Part shown: positions 6,274-43,696 of the stretch, piece by piece
Position numbering within the stretch: the first letter of the stretch is position 1
Layout of the letters: every line of letters starts with the position of its first letter
Source: a virus
Strand: one strand, 5' to 3'
Virus record (IMG/VR): IMGVR_UViG_3300045988_044483
Length of the DNA: 43,696 nt
Notes under the pieces: model-generated
Told to the model about the DNA's origin: nothing
The model's database searches: none
The model's input: the letters and a program-made list of their open reading frames with translations, nothing else
Program-made: the position numbers and the translations under genes

Positions 6274-6373
6274 GTGCTGCTCCTTTCTATTCTTATTTGA
6301 TTCTGACCTGCCATCATCAGAACCGGGCGGTCATCCCCGGTTGACGGTCCTTTCGAACCGTTTCGGCTTGCTA

Positions 6374-6709: not shown

Positions 6710-7078
6710 GTGAACGATAGAATAGTAAAAGTAAGAAAAGAAATCGGACTAACGCAAGACAGCTTTGCGGAAAAAATAGGATTATCTAAGAATTTTGTTT
6801 GGATGATCGAAAAGGGCGAACGCGTACCATCTGAAAGAACAATAAATGCGATCTGCCGGGAGTTTGATGTAAATAAGGAATGGCTGCTAACTGGAGAAGG
6901 AGAGATGTTTAAGGCACTCACCCGTAGCCAGACAATAACTAACTTCATGGGGGATCTGGTAGTTGATGATACATCGTTTAAAGCGAGGCTGATTGAAGCA
7001 CTTGCAAAACTGGATGAGTCGGAGTGGGAAACGCTGGAAAAGATTGCAAAAGAGATCGTACAAAACGGAGGCAGTTAA
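6710..7078 (+). CDS. CI-like repressor, XRE-family HTH
   Basis: IVKVRKEIGLTQDSFAEKIGLSKNFVWMIEKGERVPSERTINAICREF is a classic HTH_3. GTG start after GGAGAAGGAGG. Divergent from the early operon. Confidence 0.8.
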   Translation: MNDRIVKVRKEIGLTQDSFAEKIGLSKNFVWMIEKGERVPSERTINAICREFDVNKEWLLTGEGEMFKALTRSQTITNFMGDLVVDDTSFKARLIEALAKLDESEWETLEKIAKEIVQNGGS

Positions 7079-7303
7079 AAAGGCAGGGGAATCAATCCCC
7101 TACCTTAAAACCTTCCGGCAGAACCGGTAGACAAGCTCCAGCATTTTTTCGTTGTTGGATCCGTTTACAAGGTCCGTTATAAGTTTTTTGTACATAGCAT
7201 GCCCTCCTGTGTGTTAATTTCATGTTTAATATACAGGATCTGCATGAGAAATTTTGTAGAATTTCCGCGATAATGCCACGGAAAATGCAAGGAGGAATCA
7301 AAA

Positions 7304-7756
7304 ATGTTAATCAAATGCCCTGAATGTGGTCAGGATGTATCGGACAAGGCTAATATTTGCCCGAACTGCGGTACCCCGATCAAGAAAAAATTCTGTGCTC
7401 ACTGCGGAGAGCGCATAGACGTTGACTGTGTAGTGTGTCCGCACTGCGGAAAGCAGGTCGGCAGCCTAAAAGATGATAAAAATATCATCATAAACAACAA
7501 TAATAACAACAATAACAATAACAGCGCGGCTGCCTCTTCTTCCCTGTCTGCACGGTACAGATCTGGAAAGAAAGTAAACAAGTGGACAGCGTTTCTCCTG
7601 TGCTTATTCCTCGGATGGATGGGAGCACATAAATTTTATGAGGGCAAAACAGGCATGGGTATTCTGTACCTGCTTACAGGTGGATTATTTATTTTTGGCT
7701 GGCTGATCGATCTAATCTCAATATTGTTTAAGCCAAATCCGTACTACGTTTACTAA
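7304..7756 (+). CDS. Double zinc-ribbon / poly-Asn linker / TM2-domain membrane protein
   Basis: CPECG..CPNCG and CAHCG..CPHCG pairs. Ten consecutive Asn codons at 7493-7522. C-terminal [31 protein letters not shown] is TM2-like. Confidence 0.7.
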
Positions 7757-7776
7757 AAATAAGGGGGAAATAAACT

Positions 7777-8175
7777 ATGATGATTAAATGCCCAGAATGT
7801 GGGAAAGATATTTCGGATAATGCTACTGCATGCCCTCACTGCGGCTGCCCGATGGAGGACATCCGAAAAGAACTGACAGATGCGGGCACGTCTGCACCGG
7901 CAGAAGCTCCGGAGGATGTAAGCGATAAAGAGCAAGTAAAGGCAGTGCTTAAAAAAGTGCGTCACGGCATACAGTGGGCACTTACAATTCTCTTCTTCCT
8001 GTTCGCGATTGTATTTGTACAGGAGGGATACGGCATCCTGTCCGCAATCCTGATTGTCATTTCCGCTGTTTTTCTGGCTCCGCCGTTTTCCAAAGTAAAT
8101 AAGATTTCAAAGGGTACCCGGGTTGCTGTTATAATCGTTACATTTATAGCAGCGTTCTGGGTATCGCTAAAATAG
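7777..8175 (+). CDS. Zinc-ribbon membrane protein (132 aa)
   Basis: CPECG...CPHCGCP followed by hydrophobic helices. Confidence 0.65.
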   Translation: MMIKCPECGKDISDNATACPHCGCPMEDIRKELTDAGTSAPAEAPEDVSDKEQVKAVLKKVRHGIQWALTILFFLFAIVFVQEGYGILSAILIVISAVFLAPPFSKVNKISKGTRVAVIIVTFIAAFWVSLK

Positions 8176-8240
8176 ATTATATTTCCCCGGTGCCGCGCAT
8201 GACGGTTTCCGGGGAAAATTGTATAAAAATGGAGATCGCA

Positions 8241-9644
8241 ATGGACAAGGCAGTATTTATTTATACCCGCGTATCAACGCGTGAGCAGGCAGACGAGGGC
8301 TACTCACTTGGGGAACAGGAAGAGCGCTTGAAAAAGTACAGTGAGGCTATGGGCTGGAAGGTCATAGGAATATACACGGATCCAGGCTACAGTGGATCGA
8401 ACATGGAAAGACCTGCACTGCAGCAGATGCTGTCCGACATCAGCAAAAAACATCCGGATATCGTACTGGTGGACAAGCTGGACAGGCTGAGCCGCAGCCA
8501 ATATGACACACTCTATTTAATCAAAAAAGTGTTCGCAGCTGCAGGCATTTCTTTTGTCAGCCGCGCAGAAGCGTTTGACACGTCTACAGCATTCGGACGC
8601 GCGATGCTCGGCATCCTATCTACATTCGCGGAATTGGAACGAGAACGGATCAAAGAACGCATGATGGAGGGCAGGCAAGGCAGGGCAAAAGACGGACTGT
8701 ACATGGGCAGTCAAGCGCCACTCGGGTACAACTACAGCCCAGAGAACGGTTTAACGATTAACGAAAATGAAGCGGAAATAATTCGTTTTATCTTTGAACA
8801 AGCTGCACAACGTCGTCCTTTTGCGTGCATCGCCGGAGATTGCGCGAACATGTATGATATTGACTTTTTTTGGAGTTTAGCCAGTATCACTCGGATTTTG
8901 AACAGCAAGTTATATATCGGTCAGGTTTTATTTTGTGGAAAATGGACGCAGGGGAAACATGCGCCGATCATATCAGAAGAAACATTCGAAAAAACGCAAG
9001 AAGTGCTGGGCGAACGGAAGGAAAACTTTTCAAAATTCACGGGGAAAAAGACAAAAAACCTATTGAGCGGTCTAATTTACTGTGAATACTGCAAAAAGCG
9101 GTTTCACAAAATACAGACTGGTACATACATTTACTATGTATGTTACAGTCGATCAAGGGTGAAAGGGTCAATGGTCGTTAATCGGGATTGCAGTGCGAAA
9201 AGATTAAATCTTCGAAAAACAGATGCGCTTGTACTGGACCAGATAAAGCGCATCCGGACGGATGTTGCCTTTTACGACTCTGTTAAACAGGCAAAAGGCA
9301 GCGCGGATCAGACTGTGGAAAGCCTCGGGAAGAAAATAGCATCAATAAATACCCGCATAAACAGACTGATCAGCCTTTATTCCCTGGAACAAATCGACAT
9401 AGAGCAGGTAAAAGCACAAATAGACCCGCTAACCGCCCAAAAAAAAGAATTGCAGAAAAAGCTCGATGCAGCCGAAAGTAAAAAGAATGATTATGTTAAA
9501 CGGGAAGATGCAATGACGTTATCGCAGGCAGTAGAAGAAGCCTATAACTCCGGAAATATCAATGAGGCTCGCGCACTTATCTCCCAATTGATCAAATACA
9601 TATCTGTAAACGCTGATTCTATCAGCATACACTGGAGGTTTTAA
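8241..9644 (+). CDS. int: Large serine recombinase (integrase)
   Basis: AVFIYTRVSTREQADEGYSLGEQ...LVDKLDRLSRS is a resolvase catalytic domain. It is followed by a recombinase domain, Cys-rich CEYCKKRFH...YYVCYSR and a coiled coil. GGAG lies 7 nt before the ATG at 8241. Confidence 0.9.
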   Translation: MDKAVFIYTRVSTREQADEGYSLGEQEERLKKYSEAMGWKVIGIYTDPGYSGSNMERPALQQMLSDISKKHPDIVLVDKLDRLSRSQYDTLYLIKKVFAAAGISFVSRAEAFDTSTAFGRAMLGILSTFAELERERIKERMMEGRQGRAKDGLYMGSQAPLGYNYSPENGLTINENEAEIIRFIFEQAAQRRPFACIAGDCANMYDIDFFWSLASITRILNSKLYIGQVLFCGKWTQGKHAPIISEETFEKTQEVLGERKENFSKFTGKKTKNLLSGLIYCEYCKKRFHKIQTGTYIYYVCYSRSRVKGSMVVNRDCSAKRLNLRKTDALVLDQIKRIRTDVAFYDSVKQAKGSADQTVESLGKKIASINTRINRLISLYSLEQIDIEQVKAQIDPLTAQKKELQKKLDAAESKKNDYVKREDAMTLSQAVEEAYNSGNINEARALISQLIKYISVNADSISIHWRF

Positions 9645-9655
9645 TTTTTTTTATA

Positions 9656-9709
9656 TTTTTATCTAACTTTTATCATTCATTTCAGCAAATAGTAAAAGTT
9701 AGATAAAAA
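9656..9709. repeat. 17-bp perfect inverted repeat with a 20-bp spacer; candidate attP or repressor site
   Basis: TTTTTATCTAACTTTTA (9656-9672) and TAAAAGTTAGATAAAAA (9693-9709) are exact reverse complements. They contain the 11-mer AAGTTAGATAA also present at 6594-6604. Confidence 0.6.
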
Positions 9710-9735
9710 AGAAGGGGCAGCTTTTCGGCTGTCCC
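9703..9735 (-). terminator. Rho-independent terminator of the accessory cassette (possibly bidirectional)
   Basis: Minus strand reads GGGACAGC-CGAAAA-GCTGCCCC followed by TTCTTTTTTAT, directly after the stop at 9742. Confidence 0.65.
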
Positions 9736-9741
9736 TAACTT

Positions 9742-10227
9742 TTAAAATTCATCGATCATCGGGCAATCGTGATGATCCATCTCTTTTAGATCATTTATGC
9801 TCACATAGTACTTTATGAGCGCGTATGCAATGTCTCTTTTTCCTGGTGCGGCGTTCAGGTCAAAAGTAAATGGCATATTCCGGAGCGCATCGTTGTATGC
9901 CGCTGAAAAGATCATGTATGCCCGCGTATGTAGGTTTGCCGGTCTCTCGCCGGATTTCTGATTCCGGTAATCCTCTGCGATTCCTTTCCAGCTCAAATCC
10001 TCCGGAATCTCTGCCGTAATATATACGCGCTCCGCGTAATCATCCGGCAGTTTTTCTACTTCGATGTACGCATATCTCCGCTGCCCGTCTTTCTCGTATC
10101 TAAATACGATATCCTCAATATACGGGAGTGCGGTATATTTCACTCCGTTTTGCTTCAAGACCTCTTCAAAAGGTCCATCGATGACCTGATATATTACCTC
10201 TACACCATAATGATTAAATTTTTCCAT
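9742..10227 (-). CDS. Hypothetical protein (161 aa), cassette gene 4
   Basis: ORF with AAGGAG RBS. No motif recognised. Confidence 0.65.
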   Translation of the reverse strand: MEKFNHYGVEVIYQVIDGPFEEVLKQNGVKYTALPYIEDIVFRYEKDGQRRYAYIEVEKLPDDYAERVYITAEIPEDLSWKGIAEDYRNQKSGERPANLHTRAYMIFSAAYNDALRNMPFTFDLNAAPGKRDIAYALIKYYVSINDLKEMDHHDCPMIDEF

Positions 10228-10276
10228 TTTTTCTTCTCCTTTTTCATTTTCTTTTTCCAGCCGATCCAGTTCAGCA

Positions 10277-11107
10277 TTATTTGTTATACCTTAAAACTGG
10301 ATCATAACTCGCGATCCTGTCGATATCTACTATCACAATCTGCCCTTTTATCATCGTAAACCAAATAAGCATTGCACCCTTTATTCTGCGATCAATCCCT
10401 TGTTTGCTCTTTAATGGTATAAGCATGTTTTTCCCGACAATTGCGATGTTGCACCCGCGATTAAAAAACCCTTTTAATATGTCGTAAAATAATTTTATCT
10501 GTAAACCTTCTTCTTCGTTTACGAGATATATCCGGTTTAAATTACCGGGCTTCTTCGCATTATAAGAGCATCCCATTGGATAACCCTTTCGCTCTTTTTC
10601 CTTCAACCATTTTCCTTTCGTCATACCTGATCTGGGCGGCATACTTATAGACTTTTCTCTCCAGTCTTTCATCCCGAGTTCTCTATAAAGTTCCGGAGAA
10701 TCCATAAGAAAAAATTTTACAATATCCTGATCTTCCTTTTTAATTTTGCGAATATTATTTTTTATAACGTCAGCAAAAAACATATGGTCTCCCGGCGTTT
10801 CCAGCTTTTGAAAATATTCGTCTATGTCCGCATCAGTCAACTTTTGTACGTTTCTGCAGAAAAACGTTAAATAATTGTTGCTAAAAACCAGCTTGCTTTT
10901 TACCGGTTTCTGCATGGATACAATCCATGAATAATAGTCCATCATACGATATTTCGTATTAAAATAGATCATCCTTTCGTTGCGGATTTCCCTTATTATT
11001 TTCCCGCCCGGAGAAACAAATATATAAATTCCGGGACGTGGTTTATATGCTCTCAGCGCAATATCTTCCAGATTTTCAGCGCCTATATCTTCAATGGCTT
11101 CCAGCAT
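10277..11107 (-). CDS. Hypothetical protein (276 aa), cassette gene 3
   Basis: ORF with AAGGGG RBS. AT-rich. No motif recognised. Confidence 0.65.
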   Translation of the reverse strand: MLEAIEDIGAENLEDIALRAYKPRPGIYIFVSPGGKIIREIRNERMIYFNTKYRMMDYYSWIVSMQKPVKSKLVFSNNYLTFFCRNVQKLTDADIDEYFQKLETPGDHMFFADVIKNNIRKIKKEDQDIVKFFLMDSPELYRELGMKDWREKSISMPPRSGMTKGKWLKEKERKGYPMGCSYNAKKPGNLNRIYLVNEEEGLQIKLFYDILKGFFNRGCNIAIVGKNMLIPLKSKQGIDRRIKGAMLIWFTMIKGQIVIVDIDRIASYDPVLRYNK

Positions 11108-11119
11108 ATCATTTCCCCT

Positions 11120-11398
11120 TTATATCAACTCAATTTTTGTTATTTTCACAAGTGTGTCCAATGGATTCTCTTTCTTCTCTACGATATCAAATTCGTAGTT
11201 GATCCACTGGTCATTTGTTATTTTGTGCGAATATGATCCGTAAGAACCAGACTCCTCATCATCCGGTGCTTCGCCCTCTCCGTCCCAGACATCGTTCAGT
11301 TCTACAATTTCTCCAACTTCAACCTCTGGAAGATAATCAACTTCAAAATCACCGGTTTCTTTTGCGATTTCGTACGCTTTTTTCACTGTCTCATTCAT
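11120..11398 (-). CDS. Highly acidic small protein (92 aa), cassette gene 2
   Basis: ORF with AAGGAGAG RBS. Counted 25 Asp/Glu versus 8 Lys and 0 Arg. Confidence 0.65.
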   Translation of the reverse strand: MNETVKKAYEIAKETGDFEVDYLPEVEVGEIVELNDVWDGEGEAPDDEESGSYGSYSHKITNDQWINYEFDIVEKKENPLDTLVKITKIELI

Positions 11399-11428
11399 TT
11401 CGAGCTCTCCTTATCTGCTTTCTTGTTT

Positions 11429-11644
11429 TTACTCAATTTTTGTACCATCTGGGAATTCAAAACCAGAATAGTATTTTGCCCCTATGGCTTTCGCCATATT
11501 TTGGAAGTCCTCGTCGGAAAACTTCCCTGTTTTTAAACGTTGGGAAAATGCGGACTGTGATAATCCTATTCGCTTTCCAAGTTCCGTTTTGCTGATTTCA
11601 GCCGCGGAGCACGCCATGTTTACTTTTTGCTGGATGGTTAAAAT
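11429..11644 (-). CDS. XRE-family HTH regulator, cassette gene 1 (probable non-ATG start)
   Basis: EISKTELGKRIGLSQSAFSQRLKTGKFS is an HTH. The only ATG (11617) has no SD. AAGGAGG (11653-11659) lies 8 nt before an in-frame ATT at 11644, which would supply the first helix (ILTIQQKVN). Confidence 0.6.
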   Translation of the reverse strand: MLTIQQKVNMACSAAEISKTELGKRIGLSQSAFSQRLKTGKFSDEDFQNMAKAIGAKYYSGFEFPDGTKIE

Positions 11645-11687
11645 TTTTACCGCCTCCTTATTATTTATTAGGTTTTCCTTATATCTT

Positions 11688-11715
11688 ATTATATAATACT
11701 TCTGATTTTTGTCAA
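11688..11715 (-). promoter_or_regulatory. Near-consensus sigma-A promoter of the accessory cassette
   Basis: Minus strand: TTGACA (11710-11715), 16 nt spacer, TATAAT (11688-11693). Confidence 0.65.
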
Positions 11716-11739
11716 CATGTATTTGAAACTTTTTTTGAT

Positions 11740-11766
11740 AAAAAAACAGAGCTCATAAGAGCCCTG
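11740..11766 (-). terminator. Rho-independent terminator ending the late operon
   Basis: Minus strand: CAGGGCTC-TTAT-GAGCTCTG followed by TTTTTTT, about 40 nt after the stop at 11808. Confidence 0.7.
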
Positions 11767-11807
11767 CTTTTCGGTGTTGTTTTTCTGTATGTCTTTGGTC
11801 AGAAAAT

Positions 11808-12239
11808 TTACTCTTTCCGCCACTTTTTTGTTTTCCCGTCCCATTTAAAACCGCGTTCTTTCAGTTCTGCGCGGATGCCATACGTCTGCCCCGAGACAGC
11901 TTTAACCTTGTCCCAATTGATACCAAACGTGTCTCCATCCTCTGCGCCAGCATTTAACTTATATGTAAGATACTGCGTTTTATTTGTTTTAGATGTCTTT
12001 TCGCGTTTTTCAGGAGTAGCATAGTCAAAAGATAACTCCCCGGTACGATCATCAGCAGATGCCTGCAAAATCTCGTTCTTGTAATAAGACCCGTAATACC
12101 CGCGTGATTCTCTATATACTGCTTCTATTTCCCTGGGCTCTGCAGATGGATCGATGATCCCACCTCTATTTTTTTTCGCACTTCCGGCTGCGTTTAAAGC
12201 AGATCCGCGCCCACCGAAAAACTGTAAATTTATCACCAT
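11808..12239 (-). CDS. Hypothetical protein with an N-terminal NLQFF (Prp-cleavage-like) motif
   Basis: The sequence starts MVINLQFFGGRGS. The C-terminus is ELKERGFKWDGKTKKWRKE. It is the last gene of the late operon. Confidence 0.65.
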   Translation of the reverse strand: MVINLQFFGGRGSALNAAGSAKKNRGGIIDPSAEPREIEAVYRESRGYYGSYYKNEILQASADDRTGELSFDYATPEKREKTSKTNKTQYLTYKLNAGAEDGDTFGINWDKVKAVSGQTYGIRAELKERGFKWDGKTKKWRKE

Positions 12240-27664: not shown

Positions 27665-27737
27665 TTGTGGGAAGGGGAATTGAACCCATGACACACGGCT
27701 TATAAGGCCGCTGCTCTACCTCCTGAGCTATCCCACA
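27665..27737 (-). tRNA. tRNA, anticodon UAU (Ile, reads AUA)
   Basis: Hand-folded cloverleaf: acceptor TGTGGGA/TCCCACA, D arm GCTC-AGGAGGTA-GAGC, anticodon arm GCGGC-CTTATAA-GCCGT, T arm ATGGG-TTCAATT-CCCCT (one mismatch). No CCA is encoded. Confidence 0.8.
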
Positions 27738-42821: not shown

Positions 42822-43696
42822 TCAATCTTTAACGCCCCTTTTTAGTTTCTTTGCTATATCAAAAATAACATTTACAGTGACTCCATTTCCTGCCTGCTTA
42901 TATAACTGACTATCTGAATTAACAAACGCTGCTTTTTCAAAATAATCATCTGCCCACCCCTGAAGTCTAAAACATTCTTTTGGCGTTAACTTTCGGATTG
43001 CTATGTAACACTTAAGCTTTTCATACCAGACCGCGTATACAATCAGTTCATCTGATACCTGCACGAAAATCCCTTGATTGCAGCTTGTATCAAGCGTGTT
43101 TGCTGTTGCTTCCTTGACCTCAATCGCAATTCCATTCCGGTCCTGTCCTGTCAACGTGAACATCGGCTCTCCATCATCTTTAAATCGTCTTCCATTCTGA
43201 CGTTTTTCTGCTCTGTCGGGTGTTAATACCGGAATTGCAATTCCGCTGTCCTGCCCTGCATGATTCGCCATGCCTTTGTAGTATCTTGCTTTCAAGCATC
43301 GTGCCTGCTCTGTCATCTGTGAGCCTTCGTAGCACAAATCAATGAAACACGGCAATGTAACATGATGACCTCTTTCACTGCCTTGTCCAGTATCAAGTGC
43401 TTCTGTTGCTCCTTCTGGTGCAAAGACCTGCGCATTTCTTCTGTATCCGTCTTTATGACCGACTATTTGAACACTATTTTCCCCGTCTGTTCCTTCGACA
43501 GGAAATACTTTTGCGGTACTTCGTCCTCTAAGATGTCCGATAATAAAACACCTTTCTCTGTTTTGCGGCACTCCAAAATCTTTAGAGTTGAGAACTTGCC
43601 ACTCTGCATCGTACCCCTTCCTGTCCATTTCAACGAGCAGCCTGGCGAAATCCCATCCTCCATTAACACTAAGCAAATTCTTAACGTTCTCAATGA
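42822..43696 (-). CDS. dcm: DNA (cytosine-5)-methyltransferase, C-terminal part (continuation of 1-470)
   Basis: IENVKNLLSVNGGWDF, GVPQNRERCFIIG (motif VIII) and KQAGNGVTVNVI (motif X). The frame is open to the window end. Confidence 0.9.
   Translation of the reverse strand, partial: IENVKNLLSVNGGWDFARLLVEMDRKGYDAEWQVLNSKDFGVPQNRERCFIIGHLRGRSTAKVFPVEGTDGENSVQIVGHKDGYRRNAQVFAPEGATEALDTGQGSERGHHVTLPCFIDLCYEGSQMTEQARCLKARYYKGMANHAGQDSGIAIPVLTPDRAEKRQNGRRFKDDGEPMFTLTGQDRNGIAIEVKEATANTLDTSCNQGIFVQVSDELIVYAVWYEKLKCYIAIRKLTPKECFRLQGWADDYFEKAAFVNSDSQLYKQAGNGVTVNVIFDIAKKLKRGVKD
43642..43696. repeat. Terminal direct repeat, copy 2 (identical to 1-55)
   Basis: Exact 55-nt identity with the window start. 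Confidence 0.95.

Follow-up and report, generated by a model that had tools for sequence, protein, structure and literature searches.

The 43,696-nucleotide viral DNA of IMG/VR record IMGVR_UViG_3300045988_044483 (the window, meaning the whole stretch that was analyzed) carries a compact cassette of four genes at positions 9742–11715, raising the question of what these genes do for the phage. The initial annotation read the cassette as a candidate new defence or anti-defence module and recognised no motif in its two longest products, of 276 and 161 amino acids. As judged by profile comparison, the 276-aa protein is homologous to the N-terminal domain of the type I-B Cascade large subunit, Cas8b, and its gene travels with that of a small, very acidic protein of 92 residues. 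In view of the Cas8b homology the case is specifically one for anti-CRISPR activity rather than defence, and we consider it probable that the cassette is an anti-CRISPR operon directed against type I-B systems, acting by mimicry of a Cascade subunit. The anti-defence half of the earlier proposal is thereby retained; the defence half is disfavoured by the Cas8b homology and by the lack of any other PADLOC family in the cassette.

The relationship to Cas8b was exposed by PADLOC alone. Its model PDLC01507 (Cas8b) matches the first 128 residues of the 276-aa protein (minus strand, 11107..10277) with an E-value of 5.4e-18; nothing significant was found for this protein in Pfam, PHROGs or NCBIfam. 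Close homologues fall into 25 clusters, all of 260–280 aa except for a 352-aa fusion to a helix-turn-helix (HTH) domain and a 165-aa fragment. When a profile of this short family was searched against 1.84 billion representatives, 209 proteins were matched. After the short family itself came more than 100 proteins of 560–620 aa, matched over their first ~330 residues, and the eight of these long matches that we sampled are full-length Cas8b by PADLOC, seven with E-values of 1e-130 to 1e-173 and one, P0107 (529 aa), with 8e-57. Alignment of the short family with 32 Cas8b sequences in hhalign gave a probability of 100% and an E-value of 5.9e-42 over 265 columns, placing viral residues 1–272 opposite Cas8b residues 1–~330. 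The C-terminal ~260 residues of Cas8b are absent, and the protein falls short of the full Cas8b architecture (~560–620 aa, an N-terminal domain plus a helical Cas11-like domain). By this alignment, the 276-aa protein corresponds to the N-terminal domain of Cas8b without its helical, Cas11-like C-terminal half.

The predicted structure agrees with this assignment in a suggestive way. AlphaFold2 models were built as single chains for the 276-aa and 92-aa proteins. That of the 276-aa protein has a predicted local distance difference test score (pLDDT) of 86 and a predicted template modelling score of 0.84, and its top two Foldseek matches in the PDB are both type I-C Cas8c, at weak E-values of 0.3–0.4. 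A search of PDB sequences with the family profile returned no match.

Full-length relatives reside in ordinary CRISPR–Cas loci. In Anaerostipes hominis (locus L024), hidden Markov models (HMMs) confirm the order cas6b-cas8b-cas7b-cas5b-cas3b-cas4b-cas1b, and a CRISPR array is present; in Clostridium botulinum (L013), the same operon layout is inferred from the lengths of the open reading frames (ORFs), with arrays flanking. Among the 55 ORFs of the window, the 276-aa protein is the sole Cas hit by PADLOC, and the window contains neither a CRISPR array nor a sequence resembling a I-B repeat. The 276-aa gene is thus an orphan, without a cas operon or an array. On these grounds an RNA anti-CRISPR or solitary repeat was also rejected. 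PADLOC, which the initial annotation had suggested running, returned Cas8b in the cassette; its other matches, to methyltransferases and one HTH model, lie elsewhere in the phage.

Is the truncated gene functional? Conserved positions, defined as those shared by 80% or more of the N-terminal domains of cellular Cas8b, number 53. The 276-aa protein keeps 28 of these positions and has lost 25, among them the invariant residues E198 and Y202. The lost positions are concentrated at Cas8b 198–214 and 228–249, and the block at 74–103 is wholly kept (DYxS..MNKP..K.IxSNN..F..K). The ratio of nonsynonymous to synonymous substitution rates (dN/dS) of the gene is 0.06, indicative of strong purifying selection on a functional protein. 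Being cut down from a cellular gene and set in AT-rich, horizontally acquired DNA, the 276-aa gene could in principle be the functionless, decaying remnant of a captured cas8b. This is extremely unlikely and is effectively refuted by selection and conservation together: besides the low dN/dS value, dozens of diverged clusters hold intact ORFs of the same length that end at the same domain boundary, and synteny with the partner gene is kept down to 40% identity.

That partner is the 92-aa gene (minus strand, 11398..11120). We compared all four cassette proteins with 55 loci encoding a member of the short family (48 IMG/VR contigs together with prophage and metagenome contigs). Down to 40% identity, a homologue of the 92-aa protein is present in 53 of the 55 loci. 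In 52 of them its gene lies directly upstream of the Cas8b-fragment gene and in L087 it is 3.7 kb away. The family comprises 53 homologue clusters with the conserved core YLPELEVGEIVELNDVWDGEGE.P..SYSY.IT...WINY.FE.VE.KENPLDT.VKIT.IELI, and three informative pairs give dN/dS values of 0.03–0.25. The window's protein contains 25 Asp or Glu residues, 8 Lys and no Arg (isoelectric point 4.06), and the 276-aa protein is basic (isoelectric point 9.5). Across the loci, the net charge of the partner ranges from -8 to -23 versus 0 to +14 for the Cas8b fragment. Because of the strict linkage, the comparison suggests that the acidic protein works with the Cas8b fragment. The initial annotation had treated the cassette as a four-gene unit and proposed that co-occurrence of the 276-aa and 161-aa genes be sought outside this phage. 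In the 55 loci, the genes for the 161-aa protein and the HTH protein are confined to near-identical phages. Since these two are restricted to this phage lineage, the conserved unit, as far as the comparison of loci indicates, consists of two genes, the 92-aa and 276-aa genes, and not of four.

The AlphaFold2 model of the acidic protein (pLDDT 85) consists of one helix and a small sheet. A Foldseek search of this model found nothing significant in the PDB or BFVD, the family profile matched no PDB sequence, and the protein has nothing significant in Pfam, PHROGs or NCBIfam. An origin of the 92-aa or the 161-aa protein from another Cas protein was also considered; hhalign against Cas8b and HMM searches of 1,705 ORFs from 52 type I-B loci were negative. 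The initial annotation compared the 92-aa product to DNA-mimic anti-restriction proteins. Acidic DNA mimics include AcrIF2 and anti-restriction proteins of the Ocr/ArdA type, and the classical ones are not locked to a partner gene. The 92-aa protein resembles them in being small, very acidic and set in an anti-defence context. It differs in that its gene is locked to the Cas8b fragment, and no such mimic stood among the listed matches of the searches. The earlier comparison is left with charge as its support, having found no counterpart in sequence or fold among solved structures and viral models.

Both genes of the pair are carried by mobile elements. Carriers of the Cas8b-fragment family include 48 IMG/VR viral loci, prophages and C. 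botulinum plasmids. In a rough neighbour-joining tree of 142 N-terminal domains, built without bootstrap and hence indicative only, the truncated forms (260–400 aa) were compared with Cas8b of 560–620 aa; about 60 truncated-form clusters make one clade together with P0107, apart from cellular Cas8b. The surroundings of the pair vary. In another phage group, comprising many relatives, it belongs to the early lytic operon and follows a Cro-like HTH gene. In L120, a gene of the acidic family precedes a longer Cas8b fragment of 380 aa, behind an HTH_26 gene and beside lysis genes. On the ~260-kb plasmids of C. botulinum, the acidic-partner gene is followed by a fusion of the Cas8b fragment to an HTH domain (L123 5716–7017, NZ_CP013684.1; also CP006901.1), which is annotated merely as 'helix-turn-helix domain-containing protein'; the C. 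botulinum chromosome has a cognate type I-B system. C-terminal HTH fusions occur in several further lineages (P0023, P0086, P0090 and L001), and a separate HTH gene is adjacent in the window, L078, L115 and L120.

The closest long relative of the family is P0107 (E 5e-44), a near-full-length Cas8b encoded by a prophage. Its gene (L115 8001–9590; locus represented by L115–L117) lies at the prophage end after holin and CHAP endolysin genes, preceded by three small genes and overlapped on its downstream side by an HTH_26 gene. No partner of the 92-aa family is present at this locus; an 89-aa acidic protein beside P0107 was examined and is not a member. P0107 is identical to an entry of Katz et al. 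(UViG_3300014564_000104, a 'cas8 CAS-I-B' orphan), who predicted 11 orphan viral cas8/cas8b genes in IMG/VR (Table S3) and tested none of the listed cas8b genes experimentally. It belongs to the same evolutionary family as the 276-aa protein and shares with it a position after lysis genes at a prophage end, an adjacent HTH gene and Lachnospiraceae hosts. It differs in keeping most of the C-terminal half and in having no partner of the 92-aa family. The 11 cas8/cas8b UViGs (IMG/VR viral genome records) of that list and the 48 UViGs that carry the short family do not overlap. The co-option of viral cas genes into anti-CRISPRs is already published, and the Cas8b-fragment family is in this sense conceptually anticipated; our literature search found no report of an anti-CRISPR (Acr) made from the N-terminal domain of Cas8b, nor of the acidic partner family.

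How might a fragment of Cas8b interfere with Cascade? In type I systems, the N-terminal domain of the large subunit recognises the protospacer-adjacent motif (PAM) and contacts Cas5 at the 5'-handle end, and the C-terminal domain adds to the Cas11 'belly', lends stability to the non-target strand and contributes to the surface for Cas3 (PMC11096372). We propose the 276-aa protein as a candidate anti-CRISPR effector that would act as a dominant-negative subunit. Competing with Cas8b for Cas5/Cas7 and the CRISPR RNA (crRNA), it would take the place of Cas8b at the Cas5 end of Cascade, or it would titrate Cas5. Lacking the C-terminal domain and presenting an altered N-terminal surface, the poisoned complex would be incapable of PAM recognition, of a stable R-loop or of Cas3 recruitment. 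The acidic partner may bind the basic fragment and cover the DNA-binding face of the decoy, or it may obstruct the route of DNA through the poisoned complex. The HTH protein would serve as a regulator of its own strong consensus promoter, in the manner of anti-CRISPR-associated (Aca) proteins, and the 161-aa gene would be unrelated, lineage-specific cargo.

A more specific form of this proposal, a two-component inhibitor, we put forward tentatively. The Cas8b N-terminal domain would be a docking module that sits in the seat of Cas8b on Cas5/Cas7–crRNA, and the partner would fill the PAM/DNA groove or replace the C-terminal domain, locking Cascade in an inert state. In the loci compared, the partner accompanies the forms without a C-terminal domain and not the near-full-length 529-aa form.

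Two verified inhibitors from Listeria provide the nearest precedents. AcrIB4 (88 aa) is the counterpart of the final ~90 residues of Cas8b, a Cas11-like segment, and has been proposed to stand in for Cas11; its inhibition of I-B takes effect before DNA binding and leaves Cascade able to assemble (Katz et al.). Like the 276-aa protein, it is a mobile-element protein derived from I-B Cas8b and encoded outside a cas operon in an acr-type locus. In contrast, the 276-aa protein represents the opposite, N-terminal part of Cas8b (~330 residues) without the Cas11-like region, its family is found in Clostridia whereas AcrIB4 is reported only from Listeria, and AcrIB4 is not reported to have an obligate partner. 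AcrIB3, a Cas5 homologue, assembles into Cascade in place of Cas5 and blocks target DNA engagement; it is without the 'hook' that binds Cas8b. The principle of a defective subunit is shared. AcrIB3, however, mimics Cas5 at full length and is verified by experiment, whereas the 276-aa protein is a truncated domain of Cas8b and a candidate. A search of the verified Listeria Acrs (AcrIB3-9, IIC7/9, VIA1/3, IIA1-4/12/16) with HMMs of the family gave no match, the best score being ~0.7 bits, to AcrIB4. Every feature of the Cas-homologue kind of anti-CRISPR that we checked appears to fit: the gene is an orphan, it is carried by phages, prophages and plasmids, and it forms a clade apart from cellular Cas proteins. 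The genomic setting is also similar. Listeria acr operons sit downstream of lysin genes, as does the cassette in the window.

The layout of the cassette is likewise reminiscent of acr operons. The first ORF behind its single promoter encodes the HTH protein (minus strand, 11617..11429; 62 aa as called), with terminators on either side, and it thus occupies the role of the HTH or ribbon-helix-helix (RHH) gene that is co-transcribed with the effector genes of Acr–Aca operons. In such operons a strong acr promoter is held in check by an Aca HTH protein (Feussner et al., NAR 2026, PMC13551039). The cassette shares with such operons a strong promoter, small accessory genes and an HTH gene, and its relatives include HTH–effector fusions; it differs in that the HTH gene comes first and not last, and the HTH protein was not recognised as a member of a named Aca family, no search against those families having been made. 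We regard the HTH protein as a candidate Aca-like regulator of the operon. It resembles phage repressors, matching phrog_4583 (transcriptional repressor) with an E-value of 9e-6 and Pfam HTH/CI-repressor families weakly. The promoter (minus strand, 11715..11688) is TTGACA-16-TATAAT, which matches the sigma-70-type consensus at 12 of 12 positions. This exact string occurs once in the 43.7-kb window versus 0.03 occurrences expected, and 3 of 100 shuffled sequences contained a match.

The start of the HTH gene as called is doubtful. The Shine–Dalgarno (SD) sequence AAGGAGG at 11657–11651 lies ~35 nt 5' of the called ATG (11617), and no SD sequence is found at normal spacing; the earlier description of four SD-coupled genes therefore fails for this gene as called. 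Because the in-frame peptide (V)KILTIQQKVN ahead of the called ATG is kept in variants of 73–74 aa, the true start is probably upstream, possibly at a non-canonical codon, the ATT at 11644. A near-palindrome, GGTAAAAATTTTAACC, at 11636–11651 covers this presumed start site. An AT-rich inverted repeat at 11659–11670 / 11687–11698, imperfect and 83% complementary, overlaps the -10 box and may, on weak evidence, be an operator.

The same layout could be taken to describe a different kind of element, a prophage 'moron' that defends the lysogen by defence or abortive infection, or a toxin–antitoxin or addiction pair under HTH control. A small acidic gene followed at tight spacing by a larger basic one, together with an HTH gene, resembles a toxin–antitoxin system, a GenBank record labels the HTH protein 'antitoxin component', and the cassette has a terminal prophage position and a strong, constitutive-looking promoter. 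PADLOC, however, finds no defence-system family in the cassette except Cas8b, no toxin or enzyme domain was found, and the homologous domain of Cas8b is a non-enzymatic scaffold. In many phages, moreover, the pair occupies the early lytic operon and not a lysogen-expressed locus. We consider a defensive or addictive role very unlikely. The 'moron' position assigned by the initial annotation is borne out insofar as the cassette is a self-contained, horizontally acquired accessory module at a prophage end; it does not extend to the many relatives with the pair in the early lytic operon.

Several observations weigh against an inhibitor of type I-B Cascade. Sequence and fold searches detected no relative of the acidic partner with a known function, and the fold match of the 276-aa model to solved large subunits is weak (E 0.3–0.4 for Cas8c and 3.9 for I-B Cas8b). 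The viral family is approximately equidistant from all cellular Cas8b, with no host-specific matching. The I-B arrays that were retrieved contain no spacer matching the phage; matches of 18–19 nucleotides lie only outside arrays, at chance level. For Gallintestinimicrobium, the host genus identified below, neither a literature search nor an exact look-up of eight Lachnospiraceae Cas8b proteins linked a type I-B system to the organism. The repeat at the promoter, proposed above as a possible operator, is AT-rich and imperfect. Finally, AcrVIA2, which is Cas-derived, acts on a CRISPR type other than that of its source (Katz et al. preprint), leaving the target type uncertain.

This last precedent points to a protein that is still an anti-CRISPR and acts on another CRISPR type or another step, such as crRNA stability, Cas3 or adaptation, and not by poisoning I-B Cascade; it would parallel AcrVIA2, which is Cas3-derived and inhibits type VI-A. 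Katz et al. report in their preprint that VI-A, and not I-B, was inhibited by a homologue of a I-B Cas protein, and that AcrVIA2.1 has a broad spectrum. The missing host-specific similarity of the viral family to any cellular Cas8b and the loss of many Cas8b-conserved residues would fit such a shift in target. On the other hand, the best-conserved block of the Cas8b N-terminal domain is intact, which suggests that a Cas8b-type interface is retained, and both Cascade-subunit homologues tested so far (AcrIB3 and AcrIB4) act on I-B. A target other than I-B Cascade is, in our judgement, quite unlikely.

The HTH fusions bring up one more explanation, in which the Cas8b N-terminal fold has been exapted outside CRISPR altogether, as a DNA-binding regulator of phage or host genes, which the HTH fusions would fit, a superinfection-exclusion factor or another anti-defence factor, with the acidic protein as its modulator. 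C-terminal HTH fusions in several lineages, the pairing of a basic protein with an acidic one and the long-standing split of the family from cellular Cas8b are in its favor. HTH fusions are, however, typical of Acr–Aca fusions too, AcrIIA1 being an example, and the verified Listeria Acr set also includes HTH-containing proteins. To our knowledge, the N-terminal domain of Cas8b serves no function outside Cascade. Orphan cas genes of viruses are found clustered with anti-defence genes, and C. botulinum, which carries a member of this family on plasmids, also has the cognate I-B system. We therefore regard exaptation as rather unlikely and retain the proposal of Cascade subunit mimicry against type I-B.

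The physical limits of the cassette are well defined. The ORFs, the promoter, both terminators, the AT-richness and the charge of the 92-aa product reported by the initial annotation are all present at the positions given in this text. The four ORFs lie on the minus strand between two hairpin terminators, downstream of the one promoter. On the upstream side, the intrinsic terminator of the late/lysis operon, which ends with a GH25 lysin gene and a 143-aa gene, is at 11740..11766 (minus strand; hairpin CAGGGCUC-UUAU-GAGCUCUG, followed by U7); the region 11735–11775 folds with a minimum free energy of -19.4 kcal/mol (z -6.1), and 0 of 200 shuffled sequences were as stable. The cassette's own terminator is at 9703..9735 (minus strand; hairpin GGGACAGC-CGAAAA-GCUGCCCC, followed by a U-run), and the region 9700–9741 folds at -11.8 kcal/mol (z -2.4). 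A simple terminator scan overlooked both hairpins; each was detected by folding against shuffled sequences. The GC content of the cassette is 0.391 versus 0.464 in the remaining window, within the lowest 2% of equal-sized windows, and its AT-richest genes are those of the conserved pair (0.369 for the 276-aa gene and 0.391 for the 92-aa gene).

The last gene of the cassette (minus strand, 10227..9742) encodes the acidic 161-aa protein, which has a mass of 19.0 kDa and a single cysteine. Its gene has a GC content of 0.44, like the rest of the phage. No match to this protein was found in Pfam, PHROGs, NCBIfam, PADLOC or the PDB; the initial statement that it contains no recognisable motif thus holds, having been overturned for the 276-aa protein. 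The sole distant homologue, P0030 (43% identity), belongs to another mobile element, where its neighbour is a tyrosine integrase. The comparison of loci places the 161-aa gene outside the conserved module, as apparent lineage-specific cargo. One published class of similar size was considered. CasPR proteins are DNA-binding Acrs of ~19 kDa with CapR and AP2 domains and conserved Zn-binding cysteines, and they silence cas8b (bioRxiv 10.64898/2026.02.23.707548). The 161-aa protein, with no Pfam domain match and one cysteine, is not a CasPR.

Where does the cassette lie in the lysogen? Identity between the window and six integrated prophage contigs (L109–L114) stops at 9680–9682, with host DNA beyond; in one of the six, L111, the junction could be read through only with a 1-nt indel. 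The junction coincides with the center of an inverted repeat, ATCTAACTTTT / AAAAGTTAGAT (9661–9671 / 9694–9704, 11 nt), and this repeat at 9661..9704 is therefore the phage attachment site attP, with the crossover at its center. In lysogens, the cassette is the terminal block of the prophage, following the GH25 lysin and 143-aa genes and abutting host DNA. The large serine recombinase gene (8190–9644) lies at the opposite prophage end. The earlier placement of the cassette 'beside the integrase' thus describes the circular form and not the lysogen.

The gene sets called next to the prophage (about 11400–12200 in L109–L114) differ among the six contigs and follow three patterns. However, L109, L110, L113 and L114 share the first 30 nt of host DNA, as L111 apparently does once its 1-nt indel is allowed for, so that just two distinct junction sequences were seen. 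The prophage end in GCA_000431875.1 (L112) borders a 246-aa SpoVAD fragment encoded on the opposite strand, and a sporulation gene could therefore have been the target of insertion.

The host of the phage is Gallintestinimicrobium (Lachnospiraceae): UvrB and MatE proteins that flank the prophage bear this genus name, and CCY21879.1 of 'Firmicutes bacterium CAG:24' has the same sequence as the 276-aa protein. Exactly this 276-aa sequence is found in 588 indexed blocks of the sequence collection, and an allele of the 161-aa protein is present on 844 contigs; the phage is very common in human gut metagenomes.

Several other genes of the phage were noted in passing. The 143-aa protein (minus strand, 11808–12239), encoded between the lysin and the cassette, begins with MVINLQFFGGRGS, a motif that we take to resemble the N-termini of capsid-associated or protease-processed proteins of Firmicutes phages. 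A homologue with 36% identity (L085 2569–2964) lies ~750 bp downstream of the 92-aa/Cas8b-fragment pair in an unrelated phage, and because of this proximity the 143-aa gene may be another accessory or anti-defence gene. In the close relative L114, a Tad2-like gene (7124–7633; PF11195, anti-Thoeris family) is situated between the tail/holin region and a DUF6275 gene; the window's phage has a 105-aa gene in this slot, a second variable anti-defence slot near the lysis genes. An orphan DNA methyltransferase gene (minus strand, 42822–43676; PHROG 116, E 4e-46) likely has an anti-restriction function. It is probably the same gene that gives PADLOC's strongest methyltransferase match in the window, to a type II methyltransferase (E 4e-102).

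Between a cI-like repressor gene (6710–7078) and the integrase, two small membrane proteins are encoded on the plus strand at 7304–8175; they have N-terminal zinc ribbons, one together with a TM2 domain and a run of Asn, and are candidate surface or exclusion factors expressed in the lysogen. A type II hammerhead ribozyme (minus strand, 6302–6368; Rfam RF02276, 56.2 bits versus a gathering score of 37) heads the leftward early operon (Gam, Erf-like protein, replication initiator), opposite the cI-like repressor gene. A tRNA gene (minus strand, 27665–27737; Rfam tRNA, 64.4 bits) is located inside the structural/late region.

Among the endogenous systems used for editing in Clostridia, type I-B is the chief one. 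The known I-B inhibitors are few, and every one verified so far was found in Listeria. If our proposal is correct, this family would provide gut Lachnospiraceae and Clostridium with their first candidate anti-CRISPR against I-B. It would mean that the N-terminal half of the large subunit, which recognises the PAM and binds Cas5, can be used as an inhibitor, complementing the C-terminally derived AcrIB4, and the obligate small acidic cofactor would suggest a composite mechanism. Were the two-component form true, the pair would constitute a widespread I-B inhibitor in phages and plasmids of human-gut Lachnospiraceae and Clostridium. Domain-level searches for orphan cas fragments, combined with analysis of conserved neighbours, can expose new anti-defence partners. 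Since the phage is so common in the human gut, the module may shape the phage–host dynamics of an abundant commensal.

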